A stretch of DNA of 61,793 nt, counting the filler, from Sanchytrium tribonematis (taxonomy: Eukaryota), in assembly GCA_018985235.1 (NCBI GenBank). It is 5 parts of 5 records of this genome, joined end to end, with 100 filler letters (N's around TTAATTAATTAA, not from the genome) between each part and the next. Parts side by side here need not be neighbours in the genome. Positions count along the whole stretch, not along the records: positions 24,817 to 37,110 come from JADGIG010000225.1; 4 more parts are not named here. One strand, 5' to 3'. This document shows, piece after piece, positions 631 through 59,150 of the stretch (positions are counted from its first letter, which is position 1; every line of letters starts with the position of its first letter). A program made the translations under genes and the position numbers. Under the pieces are notes generated by a model. The model saw only the letters and a list, made by a program, of their open reading frames with translations, was not told where the DNA came from and ran no database searches.

Positions 631-3600
631 TCAGTCGTCTTCATTGATCACAGAGCTTATTAAACTATCGACGTTAAGCGCTAGTTGCCGCTGCCTATTT
701 TTGTTTGTATCAAACAAAAGTGGTTCAGTCAAAGCTTGGAATCCAGTTTCTTCAAGTAGAACACTGAGTTGTATATTGTATTTGCCTAGAACTTCCACTG
801 CTTTTATATAAAGATTTGTAATGTTTTGCTTAAAACCATCATTAAAAGTATTTTTCGCCAATTGCCGTAATCTGGCAATCAATTTCGGTGATATTGCAGC
901 AAAAATATCCGGCCGAAGTTGAACTCCATCATATAAAATTGTAAACAAGCTTTCAAGCATTTGCTCAGATAAATCTAAATATAGAAAATTAAGTGCCATG
1001 GTCATAATAAATAATATTGAAGTGTCGCTTTTAACCAGCATTACCTCATAAAGAGTTACATCGTGCTTTGACATCTCAGGCACAATTTCTCTCACATCGT
1101 ATTGGTCGCTGCAAGTTAAAAGCAAAACGAAACCTGTCAATTCGCTTCTTAGGCTCATATTTTTCTGGATATCGCATAAATTTAAAATGCTTACAACAAC
1201 AGTCTCTGTGATATTTTTCGTGTCTTTATCACTCAATCCTTTTGACAAGGCAGAACTTAACGCAAATCCGAAATCCAACTCAAAATTTAAACCACTGTGT
1301 TTATCCATGCTCTTGCTTACCTCTGCAAATGATCCTCTGACTTGTAACAAGCTATCTATTAGTCCAAGTTCAATAAAGTCACCATTTTGATCCAGTGAAT
1401 GTAATCCAGCCTCTAATAAATGAAGTGAATAGACAAAAAGCTTTTTGTGGCCCAATAATAGCACATAAATCGCAATCCAAATTATTTTTCTGGTAAAGTC
1501 TGATTGATACATACTTCCACTCATGATATTTGTCAGGCATATTATTGTAGAGCACGCAAGATCAGAGTCATCGGGTTCAAAATGAGTCAAACTATATTTC
1601 AACACCTAAATTAATAAACGGCACCATTAAAATTTGATATATCAAGTCGTCATCTGCATCGTCACTACTTAAAGCACCCAAAGCAACAAATGCGCGTGGT
1701 TGTAAAATTTTGTTGTATTGAAACGCACTACTACTAACTAATCCCATTAACCTCGCTCTATGAGCATGTAAATCATCCAAGCTTTTACTAGCACAGATCA
1801 ATATGTCTGCAATCAAATGAACTAGATGGCCTACATCTCCTAACGTTGGTTCTTTGTTCAAAACATCGGATCCGATTAAATTTTGTTTTGGAAGATATGC
1901 CAATCCAAAAAGATTTAGAACTGATTCATTTTCAGCTTGATCGGTGATGTATTGCAATAAATTTTCATCTAAACTGTCGTTGATACTATAAACTAGATTG
2001 CATAAAAGGCGGTACACATTAATTCGCTGTTGGGCATTTCCTTGACCAGCCAAACTTATAATAAGATACATGACATCTGCCAGATAATAGTCTACACTCA
2101 ATGAACCATTAAATGCATAGTTGGCTAGAATCTGTAAATGTATATCAATGCTATTCAGAGGATTGTCAGAATTTATAATCAAGGTTTTTCGAATACAACT
2201 GAGAATCTTTCCAACTACTACATTTATGTTCATACCAACTGCACAAAGTATTTCTAGAAATACTTCACTTTGAACATCATTCATATTCATAGCTAATATA
2301 ATGTCAGTAACAAGATTTGCAGCGGCTGGATTTTTAGACATCGGAGCCCATATTTTCTCAGTTAATATGCCAATGAATTCAAAATGGTTACTCGTCAGAT
2401 CAAGCAAACATTTCAGAACCTTGTTCATATTTTCAGTCGAGGTGTCGTCACTACCGCTATCAATTTTTTTACAAATTTGGTCAATGCAGGGCTCAAGCAA
2501 GCTCAAAAAGTCCAAGTTCGAGTAAAATTCCTGGTTTGACAAATACTGACAAGCTTCTAAAATAAAAGGCACAGCGACATTACTGGAGTCGCGTATTAAA
2601 TCTCCTACCAAATGCTCACTCAATATATTACTATTACTGCAGATAAACGAGTTTTTCTTTTCATCAATGGTAATCTCCAACTTTTCCACTAAAGCATGAT
2701 ACAATTGATAAGCTGAATTTTGTAAACTGGTGTTTGACTCTAGTAAATTTGAGAAAATAAGTACCAACAAACTCCCTTGAACTGAATCTAATCCAAATTC
2801 TTTTTCAATAGGCTCTGCTTTGACGATTGTTAGATTCTTCTTACTCTGAGTTATAATTTGATATATTTGATTAAAATTGGGCGATGAAAAATCGTATTCT
2901 TCTGAGTTTGTTTTAATAATAAACCTAACTTCACTCGAAGTTTCTTTTTTCTTGATTACTTCATCTACAGCAGCCACATCAATGACATCGTTGAGAACGG
3001 CCTGGATACCAGCAGTTATTTCAATTTTCTTTGTTGAGATAATTTGTATACAGTTTTTCCCTAATAGCAAATGCACAGGGTATGCGTTACCTTGCAGATT
3101 TCGAATTGTGTTTGAAAAAAGAACAGTTGGTTCATCGAGACTAAGGGTTAGACTTGGCAAGGTTAGTGAATTTGTTGGAAATAATTCTTTGAGCTGCTGA
3201 ACAGTTGAAAAAAAAGTTGCTTTTTTAAACATCTCAATGGTAGCTTTCGGAAAATTTTTAACCAGTCCTCTGAGAGTATTGTTGGGATTAAGTACAAAAA
3301 TGTTTTTGACATTGTTTATCATATTATTGGTTACAATTGCACTGATTTTCTCAATCACAATCTCTGAAATGGCATTCTCGACCGCGAATCCTGTCAAGTC
3401 GATCAATATATAGTACTTATCGTGCGCAATCGAGTTTAATAAAGAATATGTATAATATATAGCATGTTCTAGATCGATCTGAGAAACGTCGTATCTTCTC
3501 GCAATAAAAACTATTCCAGGTGTTCTTTCTTTCGTTCTACTACCTTCAGTTATAAAGCCTAGATTTTTAATTTTTGATCCATCTACACTTTCATATTTCT

Positions 3601-11477: not shown

Positions 11478-11528
11478 AATAATATCAAGTTTCAACTCCT
11501 CAAGCCTTGCAAAATATTTCCAACTTCG

Positions 11529-20185: not shown

Positions 20186-23100
20186 ATGGAAGGAGATCAA
20201 CCCCAACAGCCTAGAGTTCGAAAATATGGAGGTTTAAGGGATACCCCTTCGCTTGAACAAGAAAATAAAGATTCACAGTCACAGCCACAGCAGATGCCTG
20301 CAGGAGAAAAGAAAAAATCGCTTTATGGTCTACGAGCTCTCACGAATGACGCAGAAAACAAAAATAGTGCCGAAATGGAAACCAGCAATCAGACGAGTAT
20401 TGAGGAGGACCCCGCTGCTAATCAGAAAAAGCGACTTTATGGAGTAACTAGAATTTCTGCCAATGATCAACCTGAAGTTCAAGATACTGTAGATATTCCT
20501 GAAGAAGAAATCCTGGAAAGTATGCAACCCCAAACTGCGGCTGATTTCTTTTCTGGTAGCAAAAAAGATGATCCATCTAACATAAAAAAGGTTTTCCACA
20601 AAAGCGTTAGGCCTACTAAATTGAAGAAAAAGTTGACACCGGAAGAAACCATGATTGGCCATTTAACATTTAGAAGAAAAGCCTGGATGTTTTTCGTAGC
20701 CTTAATGACCTGTTGGATTCCAGAATGTTGCGTCAAAGCAAGAATAGATTCTCCGGAGAAACGTATAGCTTGGAGAGAAAAGGTCACACTCTGCCTGCTG
20801 ATGTTTTGTTTTAGTGTTGGTGGTGTGCTTTGGCTGGAAATTAAACGATTTATTACTTGTGTCGATGGAGATCCAAAATTAAACATTCGAAATCCAATAC
20901 ATAAGAATGTATTTTCAACTGTTAGCAGCTCCCAAGTCCTTATCCATGGACAACTTTATAGTGCAGACTCCAATGGTCCTCTTCGCTATGCAGCACAATA
21001 TGCTGGACTTGAGGCTTCCTCTCTATTTCCCAGAGTTTTTAAAGCTCCTTATGATCAGGACTTGCAATCATGCGTCAATATGACAATCATCAATAGGGAT
21101 ACGAATTACAATCAATTTATATCAGCCTATGCTCAAAAAAGAAAATATAATCTTACCAAAGATGTTAACGGAAACTATGCAGGTTGTAAAGACCCTAATG
21201 GAAATCCAACTTCTTGCTACTATGGGCAAGCCGTAGATGGTGATTTGAGTCAGAGCGTTCTCGGATCTCTCTTGAAAACTAAAGACACTCTAATGAATGA
21301 AACTGATAGAATGTGGTTCATTATTGGTGATACAGTGTATGATGCAACAGAGTATGTGAAAACGGCAACCGAATTCGATTGGGACAATCCTTTTATAAAA
21401 CCAGCAGGTGGTCCTCTTGATGTTTATAGCCGTCGATTTATTTTGAACGATGATATCACAGTTTTTCTAATGAACAATTTCTTTACAGATGCAACGGCAA
21501 ATTTCGTTAATTTGCAAGGTTATGCTGGTGTTCAAAAATGTTTTGATAAATTGTTCTTTTATGGTTACGTTGAACCTCAAAATAGGTTTGCTTGTTGGGT
21601 TTTAGATATACCATTTTATAGTATGTCGGTTGTCGTATTATGGGTTCTTTATTTTAGACTGATAACCGCTCTCCTCTGGTACATTATTACTCCAAGAGGC
21701 TATAGAAAAGATGCTTATGTCATTTGCTTCATTCCTTGCTACACTGAAGGTCCCTCGATGGCTGTTACTCTGGAAACCTTAGCAACCGCAGACTATCAAG
21801 ATGAAAAGAAACTACTCATGGTAGTATGTGATGGTAATATTACTGGTAAAGGAAATTCAAAACCAACACCAGAGGTCGCTCTAGACCTTCTAGGATGGAA
21901 AGGCGAGGACCCTAAACCTAGAGCTTATTTAGCTTTAGGAAAAGCCGACGCAAAAGTCAATATGGCAAAGGTTTATAGTGGCTTTTACGAATTTCAGGGC
22001 CATACAGTTCCCTATATGGTTATTGCAAAAGTGGGTAAGCCAAGCGAGAAAAGCACTCCAAAACCGGGAAATAGAGGAAAGAGAGACTCTCAACTCATTT
22101 TGATGAATTTTTACAACAAGCTAACTTATAAAAACAGAAAGATGTTTCCATTAGAATATGAGATTTATTTTCACATTAAAAATATTATTAAAGTAGATCC
22201 TCTAGAGTACGAATACTGTTTAATGGTGGATGCAGATACTAAAGTTGACGCTGGAAGTTTAAAACACTTGATTGGACCACTTATTGAAAATCCTATGGTG
22301 ATTGCTGGTTGCGGAGAAACGAATGTCAGCAACAAATATGCATCTTATACGTCTATGATTCAAATATATGAGTATTGGATCAATCATCATTATGGAAAAT
22401 GCTTTGAGAGCTTCTTTGGAAAAGTAACTTGTTTACCAGGATGTTTCTGCATTTACAGAATGAGATATCCGAGAGGAGAGCCATTTCTCTGTCATGATAA
22501 CATTATAAAAGATTACAGTATAAATCGAACCATGACACTCCATACCAAAAATCTACTTCATTTGGGAGAAGATCGTTATTTGACAACTTTAATTTTAAAA
22601 CATTTTCCAACAAAGAGATTAATATTTTTACCAATGGCAATCTGTTCTACTGATATTCCTGATAAATTTGCAGTTTTAAAATCGCAAAGAAGAAGATGGA
22701 TTAATTCGACCTTTCACAATCAGTATGTCTTGTTCAACATTCCCCGAATTTGCGGGAGATGGTGCTGTGATATGAAATTGTTAGTTATGTACGAGTTGTC
22801 CTCGTTTCTAGTTATGCCTGCCGCAACATTATATTTGTATAGTTTAGTTGTTCGTGGTGCTCTGCAAGGTAATTGCTTTTCATATAGGTGGAGATTATAC
22901 TATTACGCTAGCTGGTTTAGCTGTATTGTACGGTGTTCACATGGTTATTATTTTTGTGCAAAAGAGACCGTCATATTTACTGTGGCTGTTTGTCTACACC
23001 GTGTGCTCTTATCCAATTCATGGTCTTTATCTTCCGGTTTACAGCTTCTGGCACTTTGACGATTTTAGTTGGGGGAATACTAGACAGGTGAGTGCCAAAC

Positions 23101-24816: not shown

Positions 24817-25808
24817 TCAGCCGCCAATTTGACAATATCTCCAACCTTTTCTCTAGCCTCAGCCACTCTTTTTTGATCAAAAAAACTTCCCATACGATTT
24901 ATACCCCATGAAGAGCCTGTCAAAGCGTTTCTGAGCGACTCTTTGCCATAATGCTTAAAGGGACAGCCATGGTTATCTGAGCTTCCCGGTTGATTTGCTG
25001 TTATAATTTTGGAGCAGCTAAGTGAAGTACTTCCACCATGTTTAAGATGAGCCTTTTGTTCAAGGTGATCTTGCAAACTTGCCATGCAAGGTGGGAACAT
25101 ATGCTTTGACTTTTTAATATCTTCAGCCACCTGCACATTCAATCCACTCGAGAAATCTAAAAGCGCAGTGTTGGTAGTGCTTTCAATGTGACAATTTGAA
25201 AACATCTTTAATATTTGATTCATTCTTGGATCATCTTCAAAACAATTGATAACTTTTCGGGACACCTCAATATTTTTAACCAATTCCATTCTAAAAAGCT
25301 CTTTTGCAAATTCTACAACCTGTATAGCAGGTACGAATGCAAACCCATTTTCTAACTGGATTTGCCTTTTTGCAACTAGTGATGGAACTTGCTCAAATGC
25401 AATTCTATACAAACTTCCCTTGTTTTCATCGTTTATGAGCTCAAAAGATCCACCAGCTCTTAAAAATTTCATTTGTTCTGCATTTGAAGCCTTCCGAAAT
25501 TTGCTCTCGAAAAATGATAACTCGTGAGAGAGCAACCAATTTGAAGCGTCTTCCGATGACGATAAAGATAGCCTTAATATCAAATGCGATATCAAATCGT
25601 CATCGTCCTTTTGAAAGTAATTTTTTTCAATCTCAGAATGCCATTGTTGCATTGGAATATCTAAAGTTTTTTCAGTGGTTGCTAAATCAGACACTTTTTT
25701 AAGCAAAAGAGCTCTCTTGGAAATGATCGATATTAAATGGTCCGTATTTGCTAAGTAATCTGGATTTGGGTAGGTATTGTATAAGTTTAAATGAAGCTCG
25801 GCAACCAT
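24817..25808 (-). CDS. PRI2: DNA primase large subunit, 3'-partial, with an apparent internal in-frame deletion
   Basis: DLISHLILRL, FEQVPSLVAKRQIQLENGFAFVP, FPPCM, HLKHGG, SCSKII, HGCPFKH. Likely ATG at 25808. Confidence 0.88.
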
Positions 25809-25830: not shown

Positions 25831-26623
25831 TCAAAATTCCAAAGTAAACCTGGCATCGGAAAATCCTAAATAAATAACAATTACCTGCAGACTCCATTAG
25901 TTTACCGTTTGAGTCAGTACCTTCGAAAACGACATTGAATTTAATCGGACATATAGGATCAGACGTTTTCCCACTATCTGGGTCTACATTCGGAACACAT
26001 TTTTCCGCCTTGTAATTGTCGATGCAATTATGATTAGCGTCAACATCAATTTGTGAGCAAGCTCTTATTGGTTTTTGCCAATACATGTTATTTAAGATGC
26101 CTTTCTTAAACTTCAATGATATAGTTCTACTGGATTGTACGTAAACATCAGAATTAAATGGCTGGAACCATTTTGTACCGTTAGAGGTGGCCAAATATTG
26201 GTTGCAATTTTTTCCACCCGGACACTGAAACACAGCAAGATTAACTATTCCTGTATTTCTTTGTGCCACTGTCCATAAAACAGAGTAAGTATCTACATCT
26301 ACCAAATGCTGTGAAGTGTATAGCTCAGTTTTATATCTCGGAAGGCCATCGGCACCCAACCCGGCATCAGTATCTTCATAAGTTGCATTATGCTGAATAA
26401 TTAAAAATATTGTGGAACCTTTACTATACGCAGCTGGATCTCTAGCATTTCTTTGATCGGGCCCAAAAGTTCCTGTGGAATTTCGACAACCACTGCAATA
26501 AGTAGTTACTTTGGATGCATTAACTATTCCCAACTGAGCCAAGTCCTGAGTTATATTTGCAGTGGAGTTCTGGACTCCAAAAGTTATTAATGAAGCTGCA
26601 GATATTAAAATATTAAAAATCAT
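25831..26623 (-). CDS. Secreted Cys-containing protein resembling the plant Expp1-type family, 2 exons, 257 aa
   Basis: Signal peptide; ISLKFKKGILNNMYW and FNVVFEGTDSNG recall that family (from memory). Splicing 25866-25884 gives the end SAGFSDARFTLEF*. Confidence 0.5.
25866..25884 (-). other. 19-nt spliceosomal intron GTAATTGTTATTTATTTAG
   Basis: CAG|GTAAT donor, TTTAT branch motif at the fixed position; removal abolishes the overlap with the PRI2 start. Confidence 0.8.
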
Positions 26624-28782: not shown

Positions 28783-30220
28783 TTACTTTTTCAGCATCCA
28801 ATCAATTACATCGATTTTAGTCACAATTCCACGAATTTCATCTTTATCTGTAATAATCGCTGCAGAGTGCTTGTCAAAAAATTTGATCAATTCTGGTAAT
28901 TTTGTTGATTCTTCCATATTAACGTAATGCTTAGAGTTGTCAAATTTGAACATGACCTTATCCACAGCAGTGTCTTTTCCAATTTTCCCGCTAGTGAGTT
29001 TTGACAAAATGTTTCCAAGTGTAATTAATCCTTTAATTTTCGAACCTAAAACGACTGGTAATTGATCAAAACCGTGACTTTTCATAATTTCAATTGCTTT
29101 TCCACAAGAGGTCTAAATTAATCGTAGATACTTCTAACTGAACTGTAATTGGACTTTCCAGTTTTAAGTCTTTCACAGTATAACCCTTATAGGCTTCTAA
29201 TTCGTCAGGAACTGGCGACACAACCTTTGCATCGCCTTCTAAAAATCCATTTTTCTTCATCCATTCGTCAGACAGATGCTTAGTCAAATAGTTTCTGACA
29301 GAATCTGGTAACAAAACCACTACAGTTTTTGTAGAATCTTGATCATAGCCATGATCTCTAATAGCTTTAAATGCATTCGCTAGAGCTGAGCCAGAGCTAC
29401 CACCACACAGTAAGCCTTCCTCAGCAATAAGTTTTCTGGCATAGTAAAACGATTCTTTATCATTTGACTTGTACCATTTATCAATCAAAGTTCGATCTAA
29501 TACATCTGGAATAAAGTCGTAACCTATACCTTCGACTTGATATCCTCCTTCTTCCGTATTCAAAGAATTAGGCTCTGCCAAAATGCTACCAACAGGATCT
29601 ACTCCAATTACAATGACCTTGGAATTTAATTCTTTCAATTTTTTGGAAGTACCACTGATTGTACCACCAGTTCCAGCACCAGCAACAAACATGTCAACTT
29701 TTTGACCACTTTGCTCCCATATTTCAGTTGCAGTGTATTTATAATGTGCGTTTGGATTTGAAGGATTTTTGTATTGATCTAAAATTACGCTATCCTTGAT
29801 TTTCTCGTTTAAGCGTTTCGCAACACTAATGTGTGACTCTGGAGAGTCCCAAGCTGCTTCGGTTGGAGTTCTTATTATTTCAGCTCCTAAAGCCTTGAGA
29901 ACAGCCACTTTTTCTTGAGACATTTTTTCCGGAAGCGTAATTATACATCTGTAACCTTTGACGGCAGCGCAAAGCGCTATACCAATTCCAGTGTTACCTG
30001 AAGTTGGTTCAATAAGCGTACATCCTGGCTTTAGACGGCCTTCCTTTTCAGCCATTAGAACCATTTCCTTGGCAATTCTGTCCTTCACAGACCCGCCTGC
30101 ATTAAAAAATTCACATTTGGCAAGAACTTTACATTTGATGCCTTCTGCCTGAGGAATACACTTGAGTTCTACTAAGGGAGTGTTACCGATTCTTTCCAAA
30201 ATTGATTGATTTAATTCCAT
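28783..30220 (-). CDS. CYS4: Cystathionine beta-synthase (no heme domain; C-terminal CBS pair), 2 exons, 472 aa
   Basis: [44 protein letters not shown] domains join in frame after removing 29113-29131. Confidence 0.96.
29113..29131 (-). other. 19-nt spliceosomal intron GTATCTACGATTAATTTAG (CBS)
   Basis: Removal gives [28 protein letters not shown], a normal CBS-domain start. Confidence 0.92.
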
Positions 30221-31592: not shown

Positions 31593-34500
31593 TTAATACA
31601 AAATCGACTTTACTTGATCTATGGCTTTTGTAATATGTGCATTGATTTGAGCTTCTTCCATTTGTTTGTTACTAAGTAACGTTTTCTTTTTGAGCTCTAA
31701 TAGGTATTTCAGATCGTCTTGCTTATATTTGTATGATTCCTTCAATAAATAATCACCGAGGTCATCAAAATGACGATAGGCTCCATAAAAATGTTCAGCT
31801 TTCAATAATGACACATCTTGGATATCTCTCAGATGCTGTTCTATTGATATTATATTTTTCCTCATTTTCAATATGCCACTATCATCAATGGTCTTAATGT
31901 ATTTCAGATTTGATGTGAACAGATTCTCGAATAAAACTTGCAAATCACTAAAAATAAACTCAAAATCATTGGGATGTAAATTCTCTCTGCAGATGTCTTC
32001 CAACATACTTAAGGAATGATTTAAAATGTAGACATAGTGATCTGGCTCCGGCTTATTGCCAGTAAATTCGTAGTTTCCTTCACGAAAAATTAAATCCATG
32101 TAAAAATAAATTTGTCCTCGAATCTCCATTTTTAATGCGAATAAACAAAATTTTGACAATTTAATCACATCGGCTTTGACACCTTGAAAAGTTCGAAAAT
32201 TGTCAGCGCTAATTGGTACTTGCTGTGATTGATCGTCTGACAAAATAATCTTGTCTAAATAAGAATCACTTGCAGCAATAGTTTCTTCCATTAAGCTTAC
32301 CATTGAACCAATGCTAGTCAAATTGGGTTCAATTTTGACATTTTTGGTTGTCATGGTAGACACTTCTGTAAGTAGCCAAGTCAAGCTTGTGTTCAATTTT
32401 GCTATGGTAATCAATGCTGAGATATCATTTTGAAGAGAATCTTTAGAGATATCTTTGTGCACATTACTTGATTTTTCCGCTAAAAATAAATCTACACTTG
32501 AGGAGTTTTTTTCCAATAATAGATTTAAACATGTCAGAATATTTTCGTGTTGCAAAAACTTGGCAGTACTTTTTTGTGTGATCTGGTACACTTCTAGGTT
32601 AATTTAAAATACCATTTAAGAATGTTTTACATCTATCATACACTTTTTTGATCAAATTGAAAAGAATCAGTGAATATTCATTATTGTGAAACGGAAGTAG
32701 ACTCATTAATGTAGCGAGACTTTTAATAAGTCTCGAAGTACGCTTTGTAATTCTGAGGATGCTATCTTGGTTGTTTTCAAGATGAAATGCATCTGTATCT
32801 GCAACAATGTTATCAAGAATATCATTGATTTGAGATTGTACTTGAGGAAAATAATATTGCTGAAAACAGTCGTCTAAAAACATTATAAGATCAGAGTCTT
32901 TCAATGGAGTCAGCCTCATTGCAACATCTAGAAAAGAGACTGTATTTGGAAAAATGGAAAGCATATTAAATATATTAGAATTGGCCAGATTGCTACTATT
33001 TGAATCCACCTTGACACTGTATGGATCAAAACTAAGCAAGGCATTTGAAGGTGGTTTGAATAAAGTTGAGCTGGGTGAAAAATTAACATGCTTGAGCTTA
33101 AACATTAGTGTTCTTGCTTTTTCGTTTTTTAAAGAATCTAGATTTGCAATTGTATTTCCTAAAAGATAATTTTCCATGAAGGCCAGTAATTCTTTTCTAA
33201 ATATTGCCCAAGAGTCATCAAATATCCTGACTTTTGTAAATTTACGAAGCACTTCTTCTGTGATATATATAAAATGCATGATCCCTACAATTTTGGAAAA
33301 TAAAAACTGCAGGTAAGAATCAAGAACTTTGATGGCAAGTTCATCAATCGTTAATGTGTCGGGTTGCATAGGTAAAATCTTATAGTTTGAAAATTCTTTC
33401 AGTATAAGAGACTTTGCCATTTCCATAATTTCATCCATTTGGGCCTGGATGCTCCTGGTAATACTCTCTATTAACTCATTTGATCGTTCTAGTTCGACAA
33501 CACTTAAAACTAGTAGATGCAGATATTCCATCACGTCTACGTTTTCATAATTGTCATAGTCTTCAATTAATTTGGGGTTATAATTATTATCTTTAATTGT
33601 CTTTAACAATAATGGGTTCATATCGTCAATGATCTTCTCTTTCCTATTTTGGTCTTTCGATGCAAAAGCGTCCTCAAACTGAAGACTTCTAGATGCACAT
33701 TTTGGATGTTTTAGGAAAATAATATCTTGTAATTCATGAATTGCTTTTTCGATAGTTATGTTCATTTTTCTGACTATGTCTTTTCTTAAATTATCCATTT
33801 GGTAAACTTTTTGCAAATCAAAATTTTGGCAATTATGCAGAGCCTTCTTTAAAGTCCTTGCCATTGTTAAAAACTTGCGTTTCTCATTTAGAGATTCGAC
33901 TGATTCTATTTGAATTTGTATCTTTCTGATTATATCTACTTGACCTAATGTATCTCTAAGATGCAGCGACTTGTTATGTAGGGTCAAGAGATCTTCATTT
34001 CTTTCAACTAGTGTTTCTTTGATTTCCATACCTCTTGCATATGCTCTTTTGGATGATTCCATTGAAATACTGACATTTTCAATCAAGCTTGTATAAGTCT
34101 CTAGAGACTTTTGAAATTGATCATAACGGTCACTAACTAGTACTTCAAAGGCTTTTTCCGCTTTAAGAATTAAATGTGATAGATTTTGCAAATCTTTTAT
34201 AGGTCCTTTCTCAAGCATTATAGATAATGCTAATACAACTGGTGAAAAATCCTCTTCAAAAATGTATGGGAAATCGCTCGAAAAATAATCAAATAATTCT
34301 TGCGCTTCTTTTGGCCATTTCTTATCTCTTTGTAAATTTGTTTTTGTTTTACTCGTGATGGCGTTAAGATTGTTCGTTGCATCTGCATCAGCAATAAATT
34401 CGTCTTCACTATGCTGACTTCTGTTCCTCTTAATCGATGGTTCAGTTTTTGGAATAGATTGTGGTACTGGAGGAACATCTTCCGATTTTACTTCAGGCTC

Positions 34501-35484: not shown

Positions 35485-36166
35485 ATGCAACCGAATTTAC
35501 AATTGAAAATACAATTGCCGTATCATTGGACAGAGGAAACTGCAAAAAAATACTTTCACAGACACTGTCCAACTGCTCATCTTAATTTGGATGGTAAAAG
35601 TGGTATTTTAGTATTCAAATGTTATGCAGATATGCTGGATGCAATGAAGTGTGCTTCAATTCCACATCTTGATTCTGCCCCAACTTTGCAATTATACTAT
35701 GATACCAAATATTTCCTAGTGCACGAGTCTATTTTCAATTCGCATCATCAGCAAGGAACTTTTAAATTTTCATTGTCGAAACAAAAAAGACTTAATGAAT
35801 GCTTTCTGGTATATAAAACTAATTTAGAAGTATGAATCTGTTGTTTTCCTTGTACATAATTGTCAAGATATTATCAAAAATGGTTTATTAATGTCTCCAC
35901 TTTCTTCTGGAAACAAATTTGTTTATTCGGCTGATATCCGATTGTTTACTACAGATATACCATTTGATTTTATCAAAAAGCAATTGAAGCAGAGGCTGAG
36001 GCAGGACGATGGAATGTTCCCCTATATGGATCCTTTGGGATTGCTTGATATGATTTTTAAAAGTCAAGCGACTTTTTTAGAATTGGATGACGACATAGGG
36101 AAATTTATTTATTCTCTCTTCGCATCTCCAAAAGGGCATGCCATCCTGTCTATTAATAACAACTAG
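35485..36166 (+). CDS. Hypothetical protein, 2 exons, 220 aa
   Basis: ORFs 35485..35835 and 35891..36166 join in frame (ECFL|KYESVV) after removing 35809-35827. Confidence 0.65.
35809..35827 (+). other. 19-nt spliceosomal intron GTATATAAAACTAATTTAG
   Basis: ACTAAT branch motif with A at -6; removal fuses two ORFs. Confidence 0.82.
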
Positions 36167-36862: not shown

Positions 36863-37110
36863 TCAATCTTTAGCTTTAATCTTATTTACAAATGATTTGA
36901 ACCAATTTCTATCAGAGTCTTTTGTTAATACCCTTTTGTACCTATCAATGTAAACAATTTGTAAGTTATTAAAAGCACCTCTGCGCTTCTCACGGATAAA
37001 TTCTACAGCATCCAGATTTGCCATTCCATGTTCAATTAAGGCTATAGCAATTAAAACAGGTGCCCTGCCTAGTCCTGCAACACTAAATAAATTGGAATTA
37101 CCAATGCACA
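36863..37110 (-). CDS. PRL/PTP4A-type protein tyrosine phosphatase, 5'-partial (absent from the ORF track)
   Basis: Manual translation after splicing: [75 protein letters not shown]. Confidence 0.92.
37083..37101 (-). other. 19-nt spliceosomal intron GTAATTCCAATTTATTTAG (PRL phosphatase)
   Basis: Splits the catalytic Cys codon (TG|T) of [11 protein letters not shown]. Confidence 0.95.
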
Positions 37111-37210
37111 NNNNNNNNNNNNNNNNNNNNNNNNNNNNNNNNNNNNNNNNNNNNTTAATTAATTAANNNNNNNNNNNNNNNNNNNNNNNNNNNNNNNNNN
37201 NNNNNNNNNN
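37111..37210. other. Artificial contig linker
   Basis: N44-TTAATTAATTAA-N44. Confidence 0.98.
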
Positions 37211-38155: not shown

Positions 38156-40435
38156 TCACCATATGAAATTTGTTTCCAATGTTCGTCTTAACGACATATT
38201 TAAAATAAAAGGTGGGATGTTGTTTTTAAGTTCCTCCTCCAAATGTTGCAAGGACTTAATAATGACTCTATTTCTTACTTGTAGAATTCTTTCGACTGCA
38301 TCTTCCCCAATATCTGGAAGCATCTTCATGGCCGAAGGACTTGCAACGTTTATTAGAAGCCGGTCATTCCTTGATAAAACTTCATTTCTGGCGCAAATAA
38401 TGGAGGTCATAAACTTTTTAAACCTTGGTCCTTCTACAAAATAGAACTCTAAACCATTTTTGACCAGTTCGTGAAATTTAAGTGGAAAATTTATAAGGTT
38501 GCAATTATTGACCAGAGCAATATAAAGTTGTCTATATATTTTGATATAGAAAGTTTTTTCATACCAGGAGACCAATAATTTAATCGGAACCACTGAGTTT
38601 TCCAAAGATTTCTCAAGGCTGGATTTGCAAGCAGAAGCGGAATTATAATTCTTAAATTGATAAAAAATCAATATAGGTTCCATGCTTTCAGAGATTAGCA
38701 GCTGAACGCAATCAATGCCATCCTGATTGGATGCACACGCAACTATGAATGGTGCATCTTTCTGAATCTCAGCTGTTTTGTAGCCAGCATAATACTTGAG
38801 ATTTTTAAATCCATTGCGGGATATTTTCAAGTTAGTTTTTAAAAGTGGAATAGGGTCCACAACCAGAATAAAGTCATGTCGTTCAACCTCAACGCAAATG
38901 TACTTAGATAATAAAATTGTGTTTCCCAATAAACTTTTATCATTAATTTCAAAAAACAAAAAAGTTTTAAAGCTAATTAATTGAGCCGCTAAATTTTCAA
39001 ATTCATTACCTGAAGATGAATCAAATGAATCTAAGTAAAGTCTACTGAGGAGCCGCTTGATGTTCAATGGCAGATTCGAGTAGTATTTGGACGAATAATC
39101 TACCCAATACATCGGAAATCTGACTAGCATTTCACCATCAATGTCGGAAGGAAACAGGAAAGCTTGTCCACATTTTGTGTATTGGTCCCAAAATGGGTCC
39201 AATGCACTAACAGGCCATTCAAGAAACGAATAAGCAACGATCTTATTTAATTCACTAACAGGGATATGGTCTCTCTGTGGGAAGCTAGCCTTGGAAAGTA
39301 AAATATCTATTTCTTTGCAAGTCCGAGTCAAATTTTTTTCTTTCTTGATTACATTATACAGTCTTGGTATACCAGAAATATCCTGCAGAACTTTGTAAAT
39401 TTCTTTTAAATGCTCGGGATCGCTGATCCGGTTTGTCAAATCTTTCATCATGGATGACAATTGTAAAGGTGGAATAGAAAACGAGATGGAAAAATATCTT
39501 GATTCTCTAAAAATTTGATTGATTTTTCCGGCTATTGTTCCTGCCGTAATAATGATAAGCAATGACCTGTTTTCTTTCGGACTAAGAATTGCTCCACAGA
39601 AATCAACAAATTCGGTTAATCTCCCATGATCTTCGAGTTTTTTAAATTCATCGATGAGCAACAAAACGCATTTGTTTGGATCGGGAAATATTGAAGTCAA
39701 TCTAAGATTGTCAGTGTCGTAAGCATCAAGTAAATTGCCGCTTTTAACAGTTCCCAAACTTTCCAGACACCTGGCTGCTATGACTTTTTCCATATCGTAT
39801 TGACCTTCTATTTTACTATATGATTGACTGCTATTGAAACTTATAAAAACTGGATGAATTGATTTGTGCAGATGATTACCCTCAAAATAAATATATCTTA
39901 TCTCTTTAAGCAACTCTGTTTTGCCAATACCTGTAGCCCCACTACAAACAAATATCGGAAAATCTTCTCTTTTAAAATTTATGTAGTCTATTTCACCTCT
40001 GAATCTCTCAATTTGGTTTGAAACTTCTTTCGTTATTTTACTAATGATATCAGCTCTGTCAAGTAATTTGGATCTCGCATTTCTTTCAAGATAATCTTTA
40101 GATGGCCACTTCACTATCAATCTCTTCGACTCTATATAAGACTTAATTTTCGAAAAAGGATCATTTTTGAGTAAACTATCTTCCTCCTTTTGTATTGTTG
40201 AACCTTCTAATTCTAAGTCCCAAGAGAAAAACTTTTTTTTTAATAGTTCGATCCATCTCTCAAACACTATACTAGTGTTCCATTGTTCATTTAGTAAAAT
40301 ATTGAAATTTATGTTTTTACACACATTTGGAATTTCAACACAAATTGATAAATTGGAACCAATTATTTCAAAATCAATCGAAGCCCTTTTTCCTTTATGC
40401 TTGTAATCATTTACTGCAAATGAATATCTAAACAT
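38156..40435 (-). CDS. Crinkler/RHS-like protein: P-loop NTPase + restriction-endonuclease-like domain + C-terminal helix-hairpin-helix
   Basis: Walker A SGATGIGKT, Walker B LLLIDEF, SGIPRL, GNEFENL, GIDC...IFYQFK, and ComEA-like LINVASPSAMKMLPDIGEDAVERIL. ATG is 40435 or 40501. Confidence 0.7.
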   Translation of the reverse strand: MFRYSFAVNDYKHKGKRASIDFEIIGSNLSICVEIPNVCKNINFNILLNEQWNTSIVFERWIELLKKKFFSWDLELEGSTIQKEEDSLLKNDPFSKIKSYIESKRLIVKWPSKDYLERNARSKLLDRADIISKITKEVSNQIERFRGEIDYINFKREDFPIFVCSGATGIGKTELLKEIRYIYFEGNHLHKSIHPVFISFNSSQSYSKIEGQYDMEKVIAARCLESLGTVKSGNLLDAYDTDNLRLTSIFPDPNKCVLLLIDEFKKLEDHGRLTEFVDFCGAILSPKENRSLLIIITAGTIAGKINQIFRESRYFSISFSIPPLQLSSMMKDLTNRISDPEHLKEIYKVLQDISGIPRLYNVIKKEKNLTRTCKEIDILLSKASFPQRDHIPVSELNKIVAYSFLEWPVSALDPFWDQYTKCGQAFLFPSDIDGEMLVRFPMYWVDYSSKYYSNLPLNIKRLLSRLYLDSFDSSSGNEFENLAAQLISFKTFLFFEINDKSLLGNTILLSKYICVEVERHDFILVVDPIPLLKTNLKISRNGFKNLKYYAGYKTAEIQKDAPFIVACASNQDGIDCVQLLISESMEPILIFYQFKNYNSASACKSSLEKSLENSVVPIKLLVSWYEKTFYIKIYRQLYIALVNNCNLINFPLKFHELVKNGLEFYFVEGPRFKKFMTSIICARNEVLSRNDRLLINVASPSAMKMLPDIGEDAVERILQVRNRVIIKSLQHLEEELKNNIPPFILNMSLRRTLETNFIW

Positions 40436-40609
40436 TTTCAAATAGCTTCGTGGGGTATTGTTGGAGGACAAATTTATTAATAAAACAAAAATCCAAGGCA
40501 TTATATTCGATTTTCATTAAAGAACTTCCTTTAAATACAAATTTACATGGTATCAGAAGTAAGCACTCTATGTAAATAATATTTATCACAACTGAAAAAC
40601 TGATTTTGC

Positions 40610-40827: not shown

Positions 40828-42077
40828 TCATTTTACACCTATATACCCTTTTGTAGAATTTGGATTACTGGCATATTTTCGAGAGAGATCGGCAAAATTT
40901 AAAATATATCCAGGATGACCAATACAGTACATATCCGTTCCTCTATTTTCGATAACATTCTGATCGCAAAGAACTTGAATTTCATCCACACATCGTTTTG
41001 GTGACCAGTTAAGAGTGTTTTCATTTGCTGCATCAATAATCTCTTTCAAATCAGAGTGACTCATTTCTTGAAACTTCCAAGGAAAGTCTTTACAATCGTA
41101 TTTGGAGACAAATACAGCAATAATAGTCCAAACAAAAGGACTTCAAGCATCCATAGCTTCTGTCAATTTATCATTTTTCAGCACCAAATCACCAGTGGCA
41201 CCACCGTATTTTAAAAACCGATCAGTCGCATCTTCATTGCTGATTTCTTCTCCATCTACTATTTTGAACAATTCTTTAATTTCATCAATAGTTTGAAGGG
41301 TAAGTCAATAACACAAACGATATTTTTTACCATTCAAATCACCATATACTCCATAATAAAGATCGTGTTCCCCTTTTGAATACAGTGAACGTAATACCTG
41401 GGAGCTTCCAATAAGCCAGCCAACACAACCAACAATTTCAGATACATGTAACAATTCAACAATAAGACTATTAACACTTGCTAATTCCTCATATCTCGAT
41501 ATACCCGCTTTTTTTATGTAAACCTCTTGATACTCATCAATTATCAAAAGTAGTTTAAAATTTGGAACTTTTTCACTTACTAAAGACAGGAAGTCTGTCA
41601 TATTATCAGTGCTGATGTTAGCAGGGACTTTTTGAGGAAACTCTTTTTCAATCTCTTTCAAGATTAATGGAATCAAAGTATATTGTTTTTTACGACTAAA
41701 TCATTCGCATCTAATAAAATCAACACTGCGTCTTTATATACCGATTTAATGGCGTTTTTCAATTCCCTTACAATTGTGGTCTTGCCAGTCATTTTTGATC
41801 CCAATAAAACTCTAGAAAGTCTTTTATGATGCAGTGGTGAAATACTATCGTCAAAACTACGTATAATATCTTCTAGTAACTTAAATACTGAATTACTATT
41901 TTCTTTTGAAATAAAACAACCTTTATCAATCCCTTTGACAATATTTGTCATTTTCTCTTTATAGTCTTCTTTTCCAACATTGCCAGCCAATTCTAGTGCA
42001 TGAATATGATTATTGTTATCATTGATGTTTAATTTGCTAAAATCCAAAACCCTAGTAATATCAGGAGTCGGCGTCAA
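40828..42077 (-). pseudogene. Disrupted P-loop NTPase (Crinkler/STAND-like) gene
   Basis: Walker A GSKMTGKT and Walker B LLIIDEYQ. One frameshift near 41675 with no GT-AG segment, plus two in-frame TGA codons (41305-41307 and ~41143-41145). Confidence 0.72.
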
Positions 42078-42426
42078 TATTCAAGAGTAAAAAAAGCCTC
42101 CTTATATTGAACGAGGAAGATATTCTTTATTTGCAATACAAGAAATTAATCTTAACAGTTAAACTAAATTGTTCCATATATTACTATCAGGTCGTTGGCG
42201 ATTCAAAACCAATATGTTATTTTGTAAATATGAATAAGATGAACCCTTTATTAATTCTAGTACTCTATCTGATGACCAAACGAGGCAGAATTGCTCATAT
42301 GCATCCTTTTAGGTTTCGTGTAAACTGTAATTGGATTCACAAGAGATCAAGATTTTTTCTAGTCTCGTTTCCAAAGAGCGTGTCCCATATTATTTATTTT
42401 TCACATTATTTCACCACACTGGTTTT

Positions 42427-43845
42427 TTATAGATTCTTACTTTTAACGTATTTATCCAGCTGATTTTTAACTGGTTTTTCAAACTTGTAATGGACAAAGA
42501 CTGATCCCAAATATATCAGAAATATAACCTTGAATAGATCAGTGTCATTCTCTACTTTCTTCATAAACCCTGCACCAATGGCTATGATGATCACTTGAAG
42601 TGCCGGCATGTGGATAAGATACATTGCAAAGCTAATGGTTCCAAAATGATGAAATAATCCAATTAAATATTTACAAATTAAGCTGTTATCTAAAGTGATT
42701 ATAAAGAATAACCCATAGACCCCTATGTTGTAATAAGAGTATTCATCAAGCAGGACCATTTCATAAAAATGGGTCAATAAATACAAGGTACACGCATCCC
42801 AAAATAATTGAAATATTGGTCGATTTGTATGAAAATAGCTAAATGACTTGTAATAGATCACGCCGATAAAAAAAGGATGGCCTAATAAACATGTTGATGA
42901 TTTGAGTTGAAAATACCCATATGCGCAGTAATAAGCAGCCATTTCGAATATAAATAATGCCCAATAAATTGGAAAAATTCGAATTACAAAATACATAAAC
43001 AAATTGAGCAGCCATTCTACAGACAAACTCCACGCCGGAGGATTGCATCCGGACGCCCTCACACTACTTAATCTATCAACGCCCCAGTACATGGTAAGAC
43101 CCCAACAATTTAAAAGTGAATCTGCAGTCATTCTTTCCCACTTGTCTTTGAAATAATGCAGAAAGGTGTAGCTGGTAAAAGTCTTGAATATCACATCACA
43201 TAGCAGATGCATTGGATAAAATCTGGTGGCTCTACCAATAATCAAACGGGGCAAGTTAGTCGATCTTTTCTCTGTCCAATGTACCTGGCAAATAATATAC
43301 CCACTTAGTACCATAAACAAAGGCACCATGTCTTTACCATGCTCTCTAATAAACCAATGTAATTTAGATTTTGTAGGAAATGCTTTTAAATATCCTTCAT
43401 CTACAAATTGCTGTAATTCAGGTAAAACATGGAAAATCACCACGATGATTGCAGCGAACCCGCGTAATGCATCTAAATGGTGAGATCTTGCAGAACGTGA
43501 TCCAGAGGTCCATAAATAGTCTTTAATGGTACGGAATTTCCAAGTTGAAGTTTTACTTTTGGTTTTAAACATTTCACGCTCATTGTCGATCTTCTCATGC
43601 TCTTTGATATGGGCTGTCGGAAGTAAGGTGTATCGATATGGAAGATATTTGCTTGCCATATCAACAATAATTTGAACATATCCATAGTCTTTTAAACACC
43701 AGAAGAGCTTGCTCATTGTTAGAATAATTTGTAAGTACATAGGAAATTCGAAGTATTGGTAAAATGTGACTGAAATCAACAGCATCATCACCAAGTCATA
43801 AACAAATTCAATGCGAGAAAAATTAAATGGATATAAAATCTTCAT
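42427..43845 (-). CDS. Acyltransferase-3 family (OafA/YrhL-like) membrane O-acyltransferase
   Basis: HLDALRGFAAIIVVIFH, FMVLSGY, RATRFYP, WSLSVEW, GTISFAMYLIHMP, HYKFEKP. Confidence 0.9.
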   Translation of the reverse strand: MKILYPFNFSRIEFVYDLVMMLLISVTFYQYFEFPMYLQIILTMSKLFWCLKDYGYVQIIVDMASKYLPYRYTLLPTAHIKEHEKIDNEREMFKTKSKTSTWKFRTIKDYLWTSGSRSARSHHLDALRGFAAIIVVIFHVLPELQQFVDEGYLKAFPTKSKLHWFIREHGKDMVPLFMVLSGYIICQVHWTEKRSTNLPRLIIGRATRFYPMHLLCDVIFKTFTSYTFLHYFKDKWERMTADSLLNCWGLTMYWGVDRLSSVRASGCNPPAWSLSVEWLLNLFMYFVIRIFPIYWALFIFEMAAYYCAYGYFQLKSSTCLLGHPFFIGVIYYKSFSYFHTNRPIFQLFWDACTLYLLTHFYEMVLLDEYSYYNIGVYGLFFIITLDNSLICKYLIGLFHHFGTISFAMYLIHMPALQVIIIAIGAGFMKKVENDTDLFKVIFLIYLGSVFVHYKFEKPVKNQLDKYVKSKNL

Positions 43846-44875
43846 GACCTAATTATTACACGCGGATACGTTTCGTTGAATCCCTGAAAGTTGTCCGTCC
43901 AATCAATGTGAACCAGGAGACTGGACGTAATTCCATGTTAAATAAAATTTGATTTTTATAGAATCGAAGAAAGATTAACGATCATTGAAATATTCATCTA
44001 GAATTATTATTTGATATTTTAAAAGGATCAACTTAAATCAATATAAAATCCGGATATATGCAGAGAGTTAAGTTTTCTCGTTATACTTATACTGCATGAT
44101 ATCCAATTCAAATTCCTATGACAACATAGACTTTAAATTTGTGATATTAAATAAAGTTTGAGAAGCTAATTGGTAGACTGTTGCAGGTGCGGTATTTAAG
44201 TTTAGGATGTCACTTTTAAATGATATTTATCTTAAACAATATAACTCTAAGTTAGATGGCTTTTCATCGATTAATTAAAGAATTAAATGCTTGACTGTAC
44301 TACACACTTTTATGTAAATTTTTCAATAAATCATGATGAAAATAATGTAACTATTTGACCGAAAATTTACGATTACTTTTCACATGGGAAAATAGATTGA
44401 ATTTTGGAAAATAGCAAGATTTTGCAAGGTTTCAACGGATTTTCAAATTAAATTTTTTCTTGAAGCATTACTTTTGTTTTAAGGACAGCCATATTGCCAT
44501 TCAGGTTTGAAATTATAGTTTACGCTTTTAAAATTAGTATTTATTTGAATTCTGAAATTTGTTGAATTTTCGAAACGATACAACCTTTTCCAGCTTTACT
44601 TTATCTGATTCGTCGCATCAATTTATTACCGCCTAAACTTGCGCGACTAGATCAATTTATTCAATACGTCATTTAGTACCAACATATCCAATTTTCTACT
44701 TTTGATGATATGTTTTATTTCAATAATACCTTCAAACAAAACTATACATTGGGACTTTATGGGTGATCTATTCGGCACCTCATTAATCAATTTCTAAAAT
44801 TTCCAAGAGTCACATGATTTAGACGTCAAATGTGTAGTTTTTTGGATATAAGCCTGTTTCCCCTTTCATACTCTA

Positions 44876-46327
44876 ATGACCATAAAAAGCAGTAAATATA
44901 CCAGAATTCTTGATGATGATGATATTACTATTAAAGCAAGTAAATGGAATCAAATGCAACGCATCAAACAAAAGCTCGTTGGTCACGAAAAGTTATATAG
45001 AGTTATATATTTGATAATAACAATTTATTTGACCATTCAATTCATGAAATATTCACTTTTCAGCAATCAATCAATAGGAATCATAGTAGCTGGACAACTA
45101 ATCTGGTATTTATTTGAGTATAAAATTGAATTACCGATTCATAAAATTCTCCCCAAAATACCAAATAAATGGCAGGATAGTAAGTATTACCACAAGGAAT
45201 CATCAAGATCATATCACCTAGATGGTATTCGCGGTATAGCTTCCATTATTGTTTATAATAATCACGCTTTTAGTGATCAATTCTCCACTGAAAATCACAT
45301 AAAAAAATCTTCCTATGGTCCTGAATTTCGCAATTTAAGCGTGTGCATGGTTGTAGTATTTGTTTGTCTAAGTGGTTATGTATTAACGCAAGTATATTGG
45401 AATGATAAAAGATCAAATAATCTCTACAAGTTGATATTTGGTAGATTGTGTAGATTTTATCCCCTTCATATAGTTACCAGTGTTTTGTATTTTGCTGCAT
45501 GTGTCTATATTGGCAGATTCATGGATTCCTCATTCACCGATAGAGTGAGTGAATATAATGTCGTTAAATGCTTTTCTCTAACGCATTTATGGGACAAGTA
45601 CTGGTATCATTATGGAAATAAAATTGACGGAATCGAATGGATGCACACATGCAACATACCTGCCTGGTCTTTATCAACAGAATTGCTTCTTAATTTGTTT
45701 ATGTTTGTATGTATTAGATATATACCTGTATTTCTCAATATATTTTTATTTGTAGTCGCTAGCCAGATTGGAATCGTTGCTATTCAAGATGGCTCGTTGC
45801 TATATGAATATTTTTATCATTTTTTTGTGGCCGTTTTGGCGACAAAGATTTTTGGATGGATTAAAGTATCATTTATCCCTTTTCGATTAATATTTGATGT
45901 GGTTTGCGTGTATCAATTATCTCAAATCAAACACGCGTTTGAAATAGGTGGTGTATATAATCCACTTCTTGTTGCGACACATGTCAATGTCACTCACTAT
46001 TTTGTCGTATTAATGATATTATTGCAGCATTCTTATTTTATAGGAAAATTTGTAGGAAATCCACTATTTAGGTATCTGGGACGAATCAGTTTCAGTCTGT
46101 ACTTGATTCATTTTCCATTGCTGCTATTATTGAGCATTTGGCACCAAGGAATTCAATTTGTAGATAATGATGAGCAACATGTCTATATTATGCTTTTTGT
46201 AATTTTTATATCCGATTTAACTAATAGATTTGTAGAAGAACCACTAACAAAGAATTTCAATGAGAAATTTGGAATTTACAGTGAAAAATTAAAGCCCGTT
46301 TTACCAAAAGATAAAAGGGACGTGTAA
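44876..46327 (+). CDS. Acyltransferase-3 family (OafA/YrhL-like) membrane O-acyltransferase, paralog
   Basis: HLDGIRGIASIIVYNNH, FVCLSGYVL, RLCRFYP, WSLSTE, LGRISFSLYLIHFP, RFVEEP. Confidence 0.9.
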   Translation: MTIKSSKYTRILDDDDITIKASKWNQMQRIKQKLVGHEKLYRVIYLIITIYLTIQFMKYSLFSNQSIGIIVAGQLIWYLFEYKIELPIHKILPKIPNKWQDSKYYHKESSRSYHLDGIRGIASIIVYNNHAFSDQFSTENHIKKSSYGPEFRNLSVCMVVVFVCLSGYVLTQVYWNDKRSNNLYKLIFGRLCRFYPLHIVTSVLYFAACVYIGRFMDSSFTDRVSEYNVVKCFSLTHLWDKYWYHYGNKIDGIEWMHTCNIPAWSLSTELLLNLFMFVCIRYIPVFLNIFLFVVASQIGIVAIQDGSLLYEYFYHFFVAVLATKIFGWIKVSFIPFRLIFDVVCVYQLSQIKHAFEIGGVYNPLLVATHVNVTHYFVVLMILLQHSYFIGKFVGNPLFRYLGRISFSLYLIHFPLLLLLSIWHQGIQFVDNDEQHVYIMLFVIFISDLTNRFVEEPLTKNFNEKFGIYSEKLKPVLPKDKRDV

Positions 46328-46957: not shown

Positions 46958-47039
46958 TGTAACAGGAATGTCATCTAGAACATTCTACATTCCAGTTATA
47001 AAGGAATCTTCCCCCAATAAATACCTTTCCCCCTTTACA
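46958..47039 (+). repeat. Putative 5' LTR, 82 bp
   Basis: TGTAA...TTACA inverted termini, internal TATAAA then AATAAA, directly followed by the PBS. Confidence 0.72.
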
Positions 47040-47049
47040 TGGTAGCGAG
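47040..47049 (+). promoter_or_regulatory. Primer-binding site TGGTAGCGAG (initiator tRNA-Met type)
   Basis: Abuts the LTR-terminal CA; TGGTAGCG matches the tRNA-iMet PBS core of yeast Ty1/Ty3. Confidence 0.75.
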
Positions 47050-49486: not shown

Positions 49487-49586
49487 NNNNNNNNNNNNNN
49501 NNNNNNNNNNNNNNNNNNNNNNNNNNNNNNTTAATTAATTAANNNNNNNNNNNNNNNNNNNNNNNNNNNNNNNNNNNNNNNNNNNN
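49487..49586. other. Artificial contig linker
   Basis: N44-TTAATTAATTAA-N44. Confidence 0.98.
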
Positions 49587-55489: not shown

Positions 55490-55563
55490 CGCTCCCGGGT
55501 GGGCTTGAACCACCATCCTTTCGGTTAACAGCCGAACGCGCTAGCCGATTGCGCCACGGAAGC
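55490..55563 (-). tRNA. tRNA-Asn (GTT), intronless
   Basis: Reverse complement GCTTCCGTGGCGCAATCGGCTAGCGCGTTCGGCTGTTAACCGAAAGGATGGTGGTTCAAGCCCACCCGGGAGCG folds as a cloverleaf; anticodon arm TTCGG-CTGTTAA-CCGAA. Confidence 0.96.
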
Positions 55564-58345: not shown

Positions 58346-59150
58346 ATGTCTGACAAACCTCTTCCAAAACCCTCAGATTTAATGTCAAAACTGCCAAGTC
58401 TCAGTAATACTCTGCAAAATAATAAAGTAAATCAGCAACTGCCACCTGCAGATGGTAGCAATGCTCCACTTCCAAGTTCCTCCAGTTTATTAAGCAATTT
58501 ACCAAAGCCGCCATCTGTCTCCACACCGAATTCTGCATTACCATCTGCGAGGGCTCTCGGCATTACTTTCCCTTGGCATGAAGAACGTTATAGACAGAAT
58601 TTGAGCTCCTACAAAAAAGAAACGAAATCCTCAGTACTCCCACCAATGCAAACTCCATCTTCGTTACCATCTCAAAATAGTACTTTTCAGCAATTACCAC
58701 CTTCTATGCAAAATTCCTCCGCGTTGAATCCGTTAAACCACCAACCAAAAACATTTCAAAATACCCCGTTGCAGGGACTGCGTACCAATAATTTGGGAAA
58801 AAGATATCTTGAAGAGCAGCAGGTAATTTTGTTTCACTCAGTTTGTTCCTAGCAAAATTCAAAAGGTTGAAAAAACTCAACCAGCGCATATTCATAAATC
58901 GATTCCACCAAGCTCAACCAATCAGCAACAGCAAAAGAAGGTCAATGAAGTCGAAGTCACTAATTCGTCCTTTCTCTGCAGATTTATGGATCTTCCAGGC
59001 GTGATTACCCTCCAAAAATTGCCTGGTTGCGTCAAATTAGATGATCAAACAATAAGCTGTACCTCGGTCCAACAGCAAATCGAAATGACACGGCAATTTA
59101 TTTTAGAATACGATCGCCTCAAAACTGGAAAATATCAGGTAGTTCGATAA
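58346..59150 (+). CDS. Pro/Ser-rich hypothetical protein, 2 exons, 261 aa
   Basis: Removing 58823-58841 extends the ORF by 102 codons (EEQQ|FVPSKIQK...GKYQVVR*) to 17 nt from the convergent neighbour. Confidence 0.7.
58823..58841 (+). other. 19-nt spliceosomal intron GTAATTTTGTTTCACTCAG
   Basis: CAG|GTAAT donor, TTCAC branch motif with A at -6, CAG acceptor. Confidence 0.82.

Follow-up and report, generated by a model that had tools for sequence, protein, structure and literature searches.

Spliceosomal introns of very small size have been described in the ciliate Stentor coeruleus (15–16 nucleotides (nt); PMC9505925), in the rhizarian Mikrocytos mackini (16–17 nt; PMC10245619) and in chlorarachniophyte nucleomorphs (18–21 nt, 19 nt being typical; PMC10245619, PMC2483917). 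Introns are about 25 nt in E. cuniculi and about 30 nt in Rozella (PMC6349667), with CTAAYTT as the microsporidian branch motif (PMC2483917); myxobolids have, among animals, introns with the lowest median length, 22 nt (PMC13644364), and the shortest validated intron of animals, fungi or plants in NCBI Gene in 2015 measured 30 nt (PMC4675715). The mark of the tiny fixed-length intron lineages (Stentor, Mikrocytos and the nucleomorphs) is that nearly all introns of a genome lie within 1–4 nt of a single length below 22 nt. Here we analyse a 61,793-nt stretch of DNA from the sanchytrid Sanchytrium tribonematis (GenBank assembly GCA_018985235.1), called the window throughout, which consists of five pieces joined by identical 100-nt linkers (44 N, 12 nt and 44 N) at 12316, 24717, 37111 and 49487. 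In its gene for a PRL (PTP4A) phosphatase, a 19-nt GT...AG segment splits the codon of the catalytic Cys; with high confidence we read this segment as most likely a real spliceosomal intron of a likely intact gene, and one of eight segments of the same length.

The putative introns of the window are like those of Stentor in near-fixed length, AU-richness and GU-AG ends, and the Stentor branch A, at base 10 of 15 or 11 of 16, leaves the same 5-nt tail as would position 14 of 19 here; Stentor, however, has thousands of introns, 3–4 nt shorter and with no strong branch consensus (PMC9505925), whereas the window has YTNAY in all eight and a sparse intron complement (eight in 61 kb, or 0.13 per kb, a count that would miss introns that keep the frame or lie in untranslated regions). 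Mikrocytos is comparable as a reduced parasite with a few hundred introns of about one length and conserved sequence, but these are shorter, RNA-verified and absent from metabolic enzyme genes (PMC10245619); the putative introns of the window include ones in the genes for cystathionine beta-synthase (CBS) and chitin synthase. Nucleomorph introns are of the same size class, yet belong to a remnant endosymbiont nucleus that is intron-rich, and reportedly have no branch-point signature (PMC10245619, PMC2483917), whereas those of the window lie in the main nucleus and have a clear branch motif. Microsporidia and Rozella, fungal or fungus-related parasites, likewise have short GT-AG introns with a branch motif near the acceptor; theirs are some six or more bases longer and of varied length, with a strong 5' bias in E. 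cuniculi (PMC6349667, PMC2483917), whereas those of the window are exactly 19 nt and often far inside the gene. Myxobolids and Dicyema, likewise parasites among the opisthokonts, also combine ultra-short introns with a GTa donor, but they are animals; their introns show a spread of lengths and a weak branch signal that lies farther from the AG the longer the intron (PMC13644364).

The split active-site codon of the PRL gene

Reading the minus strand from 37110, we find, as the preliminary description did, codons for Val-His and two bases of a Cys codon, 19 nt with GT...AG ends, then the last Cys base and codons for Val-Ala-Gly-Leu-Gly-Arg-Ala-Pro (coordinates in Table 1). The frame without splicing is Val-His-Trp-stop. 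Sixteen GT-AG or GC-AG choices of 12–60 nt give one open frame to the PRL stop, among which the 19-nt choice alone yields [11 protein letters not shown] and restores H-C-x5-R. This motif is conserved in 223 of 227 homologs, the exceptions being P0045 and three open reading frames (ORFs) that end inside it (P0121, P0122 and P0123). Because only this GT-AG choice restores a motif whose spacing is so widely kept, the length of the putative intron is fixed by homology at 19 nt; the earlier claims that the motif dictates this length, and that the intron can serve as an internal control, hold.

The identification of the gene as a PRL phosphatase was likewise upheld. Its downstream exon comprises 72 open codons, ending KIKAKD-stop at 36863, and the 72 residues match 22 sequences in the PDB, all of them PRL-family chains or the Leishmania PRL-like chain, with PRL-1 at the top (E = 1e–17). 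The Gly-Arg-Ala part of the P-loop lies in this exon and needs no splice. Identity over the exon is 86% to P0001 and, over about 48 residues, 98% to P0005, from Amoeboradix gromovi. Of the upstream exon the window contains just 9 nt, some 190 N-terminal codons lying outside.

Published definitions of PRLs name three features, namely Ala following the catalytic Arg, another Cys besides the catalytic one, and a CAAX box (PMC8728433, PMC10040874). With the 19 nt removed, the window protein has the PRL/PTP4A P-loop H-C-V-A-G-L-G-R-A, with Ala after Arg, as well as the basic C-terminal tail of that family (PMC8728433, PMC10040874), with 8 Lys/Arg among the last 25 residues; it differs in having no C-terminal CAAX farnesylation box and sits with the CAAX-less PRLs of early-diverging fungi. 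The KIKAKD end without such a box had been pointed out before; the observation is correct, but it does not set this protein apart, for a CAAX box occurs in only 1 of 104 further homologs (mostly from early-diverging fungi, some of them partial entries), and P0001–P0004 have ends like KIKAKD-stop. A hidden last exon encoding a CAAX box was considered and ruled out, as relatives terminate at the same place. The second active-site Cys and the acidic loop of PRLs would fall in a region of the gene outside the window; for that region, all eight sanchytrid-like PRL relatives have the motifs V-R-[VL]-C-E and D-G-G-T-P, and the Cys of the former may be the disulfide partner. A tree was built from 32 chosen N-terminal domains, a region that the window fragment lacks; in this tree, these eight ORFs form a clade (100/100) that weakly joins CAAX-less blastoclad copies (91/83), blastoclads also retaining a separate CAAX-bearing copy. 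Given this grouping and the 103 of 104 further homologs that lack the box, sequence comparison makes the missing CAAX a trait of an early-fungal PRL group and not a peculiarity of the window gene. By the strict published definition the predicted protein is a PRL-like, CAAX-less fungal member, and the gene itself is ordinary for early-diverging fungi. Judging from the family, the protein would form a long-lived phosphocysteine, having Ala after the catalytic Arg, and any membrane binding would be through the basic tail instead of a farnesyl group.

Eight inserts with a common length and motif

Six further genes in the window are frame-broken by ORF structure alone, namely those for RasGAP, chitin synthase, CBS and Sec8 and two of unknown family, and all six have a 19-nt GT-AG solution. 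When 4000 frameshifts were placed in the window's own long ORFs, the rate of rescue by 19-nt GT-AG segments was 11.2%, so that six of six would arise by chance with a probability of 2e–6; requiring also the 3' motif described below lowered the rate to 0.025%, a post hoc figure in that the motif was derived from the eight introns. Left out of the count of six of six are six of 13 junctions for which no 19-nt solution exists; of these, three lie within decayed elements (42080/41700, 47312/47608 and 48408/48981), and three fall between paired ORFs that we judged to be separate genes (8836/8600, 9026/8600 and 35828/36298).

Together with the PRL insert and one found by motif (Table 1), all eight begin with G1 and T2, and seven each have A3 and T6. 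Their 3' ends read Y-T-N-A-Y-N-Y-AG without exception (Y at –9, T at –8, A at –6, Y at –5 and Y at –3), which leaves no room for a polypyrimidine tract, and every insert shifts the frame by +1. We also scanned the window for GT...YTNAY-Nk-YAG over a grid of 278 cells of length and branch spacing, with neither value preset; the peak, 12 matches where the mean was 3.27 (Bonferroni P = 0.043), fell in the cell that combines a length of 19 nt with a branch A at –6. Mononucleotide shuffles gave a length spectrum that was not informative, since coding DNA is poor in TAG. A search for short first exons at 36 ORF starts turned up 8 candidates of 23–42 nt; none of them was convincing, and no candidate measured 19 nt.

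The length is not equally firm in all cases. It is fixed by homology in the PRL and CBS genes; in the latter, the 19-nt splice gives the best score against all 111 of 111 full-length homologs and a gap-free alignment with human CBS. For chitin synthase it is favoured by Pfam coordinates, profile positions 23–426 of Chitin_synth_2 falling on the first ORF and 429–510 on the second. The introns of the RasGAP gene and those at 58823 and 25866 have frame and motif as their whole evidence. In the first of these, the splice joins ORFs of 2053 and 324 codons in a gene with RasGAP and CRAL-TRIO domains, and alignment to neurofibromin is weak on both sides of the junction, too weak to fix it. For Sec8, the unbroken relative P0349 covers the junction and accommodates 19 or 22 nt, and in a rough, wider vote 29 of 66 favoured 19 nt and 11 favoured 22, with 16 tied and 10 for other lengths. 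Thus all eight introns admit 19 nt, and two of these admit 22 as well.

Most likely, the inserts are removed by the major (U2-type) spliceosome under a rule of fixed geometry. U2 would pair with YTNAY, in which the A at position 14 would be the branch point; branching would leave a 14-nt lariat and a 5-nt tail, the donor being of GTA type and the acceptor the first AG, five bases past the branch A. Among the marks of U2-type introns, GT-AG ends and Y-T-N-A-Y at –9 to –5 are each present in all eight, and use of the A at –6 as the branch point is presumed from this motif. The window contains genes for two spliceosomal proteins, SF3A2 (9175–9870) and an LSm protein (8664–9026), and an Rfam scan of it found no small nuclear RNA. 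An unspliced PRL message would give Trp-stop in place of the catalytic Cys, and splicing would therefore be required for any active or CNNM-binding enzyme.

Table 1. Positions of the PRL gene parts and of the eight putative 19-nt introns
Feature	Position	Strand	Evidence or remark
Upstream PRL exon, last 9 nt (Val-His and first two bases of the Cys codon)	37102..37110	-	sequence; P0122 end IAVHW-stop
Putative 19-nt GT-AG intron, phase 2, in catalytic Cys codon of PRL; likely branch A at position 14 (–6)	37083..37101	-	
Last PRL exon: end of P-loop with Ala after catalytic Arg, basic tail, no CAAX, stop	36863..37082	-	PDB PRL-1; P0001, P0005
Artificial 100-nt N linker, interrupting the PRL gene	37111..37210	.	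one of four identical linkers
Putative 19-nt intron, phase 0, CBS gene	29113..29131	-	length fixed by homology
Putative 19-nt intron, phase 1, chitin synthase gene	22869..22887	+	Pfam Chitin_synth_2
Putative 19-nt intron, phase 0, weak donor, neurofibromin-like RasGAP gene	1606..1624	-	joins two ORFs
Putative 19-nt intron (22 nt to next AG fits too), phase 1, exocyst Sec8 gene	32594..32612	-	
Putative 19-nt intron (22 nt fits too), phase 0, unknown-family gene	35809..35827	+	frame and motif only
Putative 19-nt intron, phase 0, CAG acceptor, unknown-family gene	58823..58841	+	frame and motif only
Putative 19-nt intron, phase 1, ahead of 10-codon last exon, PF28132-like gene	25866..25884	-	found by motif

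Within the gene for the large subunit of primase (24817–25808), positions 25018–25036 (minus) form a further 19-nt GT...AG element, which bears the 3' motif of the lineage. It coincides with an in-frame gap of about 53 residues in the Fe-S C-terminal domain (human 307 to 361); splicing of the element would shift the frame and retention preserves it. Looking through the window for short motifs from the missing part gave no match. Loss of an exon flanked by two introns, collapse of the assembly or chance could account for the gap.

Intron traces in relatives

The nearest named homologs of the PRL gene are EukProt entries from A. gromovi (P0005) and S. tribonematis itself (P0122). The latter ends IAVHW-stop, the read-through expected at the window donor; it could represent the very gene of the window or an ortholog that shares the intron. 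In A. gromovi a single contig carries both PRL and CBS (NODE_4 p26 and p12), and in the window the two are 7 kb apart; because of this linkage in both, the window PRL looks like the syntenic ortholog. An environmental PRL (P0001) and CBS (P0229) whose longest contigs are equal in length point the same way.

Since ORF callers read into introns, truncated homologs carry intron traces. P0005, P0122 and P0228 are labelled complete in EukProt and are nonetheless truncated at intron sites, because ORF calling on genomic contigs ignored introns. For CBS, three ORFs of sanchytrid-like relatives, namely P0228 (A. gromovi), P0229 and P0230, stop at the phase-0 site of the window gene. When read-through tails were back-translated over lengths of 12–40, the CBS entry P0230 indicated 19 nt, with 11 of 15 next-exon residues recovered (2 of 10 and 4 of 9 for the alternatives), and so did the PRL entry P0121, with 3 of 3. 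Taking the stop codon as the acceptor would give 21 nt for P0229, 19 for P0005, 17 for P0123 and 15 for P0228, four entries with no testable next-exon residue, for which longer introns with an internal stop fit equally. On these traces, tiny introns are apparently common to the sanchytrid group.

The site within PRL varies. Among the eight sanchytrid-like ORFs, one breaks at the Cys codon, two break 8 nt downstream, one breaks 47 codons downstream and four are unbroken; that is, the intron site is in the Cys codon in the window and P0122, in a Gly codon in P0121 and P0123 and in an Arg codon in P0005, and P0001–P0004 have none. The suggestion that the Cys-codon intron is an ancestral one reduced in size finds no support in this pattern. 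Intron gain or sliding within the sanchytrid group may account for it, as may differential loss. The traces fall at three sites among close relatives, though the window averages well below one intron per gene. When we scanned JGI metagenomes with the PRL alignment, the P-loop was unbroken in all of the best 80 of 206 loci (top identity 49%, no sanchytrid among them), a result that says little on intron ancestry in that such a search favours unbroken matches. No match was found among the viral contigs searched.

Alternative explanations

The PRL copy might be a pseudogene or an assembly error, its 19 bases a chance insertion. Decayed sequence does occur elsewhere in the window (40828–42080 and 47021–49487), as does the odd in-frame deletion in primase; however, the downstream PRL exon is intact and 86–98% identical to its relatives, the locus is apparently syntenic with CBS, the GT-AG ends and motif recur in seven other genes with all eight shifts being +1, and the CBS genes of relatives are interrupted at an identical site by inserts that differ in sequence. 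We consider decay or error very unlikely. A longer true intron, with its donor upstream of the window cut and the 19 nt an artefact, is almost certainly not the explanation: just 9 nt precede the donor in the window, and a second GT at 37109 leaves the frame open with a 27-nt intron, but those 9 nt are in the expected frame, coding for Val-His and the beginning of Cys; an intron of 27 nt would delete His-Cys, and P0122 runs in frame through IAVH into W-stop. The uniform +1 shift of all eight inserts would also suit ribosomal frameshifting, bypassing or a self-splicing element, by which the 19 bases would be skipped without a spliceosome. Such skipping is scarcely credible given the GT-AG ends and branch consensus in all eight; moreover, a plain +1 shift would insert six residues into the invariant H-C-x5-R loop, folding at the PRL site is no different from that of shuffles (z = –0.36), and the window has no Rfam intron or ribozyme.

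Compatible with genuine introns is the possibility that they are poorly spliced, as in microsporidia, so that most PRL messages are destroyed or give dead protein. Short introns of E. cuniculi are spliced at less than 20% (PMC6349667) and the 16-nt introns of Mikrocytos at 63% (PMC10245619), and retention of the PRL intron would give an immediate stop. Yet the branch motif is present in all eight, and several introns lie far within large housekeeping genes, namely those for Sec8, chitin synthase, CBS and a RasGAP, where low splicing would presumably be costly; we regard poor splicing as unlikely, if worth bearing in mind.

Several points weigh against a real intron of fixed length in an intact PRL gene. 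A second, intronless PRL copy may exist elsewhere in the genome. Window scans for the motif are weak alone (P = 0.11 and 0.15 for loose patterns, 0.01–0.02 for tighter ones), the runner-up cell of the grid scan had 10 matches, and about 4 of the 12 motif matches at the peak are background. The Sec8 gene and that at 35809 also permit 22 nt, and against the closest Sec8 relative the gap is 1 residue with 22 nt and 2 with 19. Nor is 19 a constant across the phylum, as the CBS intron of P0229 apparently fits 21 nt.

Significance of a probable 19-nt intron class

A single PRL intron is ordinary in mechanism; its value is as a clean length standard for a trait of the whole lineage. The window introns would be shorter than any fungal introns in the literature that we searched. 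That literature, whose scope left out most subscription papers, held no description of sanchytrid introns: in the available text of the sanchytrid genome paper the word "intron" occurs only in a reference title and, among nine text supplements, only in one annotation table (PMC8371127), and the available part of PMC10459994 likewise has no such description. Tentatively, and as a view that may well prove wrong, we propose that tiny fixed-length introns arose once more, in an origin not yet described, in sanchytrids; that, at 19 nt in this species, typical nuclear introns are shorter than in any other fungus or any animal; that the branch-to-acceptor spacing of Stentor evolved independently here; and that minimal introns are still gained or moved, not only lost, the last because PRL has three intron sites within 150 bases among close relatives. 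If true, this adds a fungal lineage, related to blastoclads with their usual introns, to the eukaryotes at the lower size limit of splicing; the 14-nt lariat and 5-nt tail would be directly comparable with those of Stentor and Mikrocytos, and the variable sites would offer a way to test whether introns are gained or slide. TransDecoder, applied to genomic contigs, produced the published sanchytrid proteomes (PMC8371127). Because of this, and because the named PRL and CBS entries retrieved here are cut at these sites, statements on sanchytrid gene content and gene loss may need rechecking with an annotation that permits introns below 20 nt.

Other features of the window

The gene at 25866–26623 (minus) has Atlas look-alikes in PF28132 (DDB_G0273449-like; score 0.95, of low recognition value), and if read through without intron removal would overlap the start of the primase gene. 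At 11415–11555 the open frames of two divergent genes, one GCN5-like (minus) and the other GPI1 (plus), overlap; upstream of its first Met the GCN5-like frame still has the look of coding sequence, and a first intron of 19 nt was not found there. A decayed retroelement with a reverse-transcriptase domain (PF00078) occupies 47021–49487 (plus), with stops and frameshifts that have no 19-nt solution. At 38156–40513 (minus) is a 785-codon ORF with a weak match to NACHT/AAA-type ATPases, adjoined by a cluster of fragmented ORFs (40828–42080, minus) with in-frame stops and a P-loop-like motif. Two divergent Acyl_transf_3 genes, at 42427–43848 (minus) and 44852–46327 (plus), may represent a local duplication. 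One tRNA gene, at 55490–55563 (minus), is the sole Rfam match in the window.
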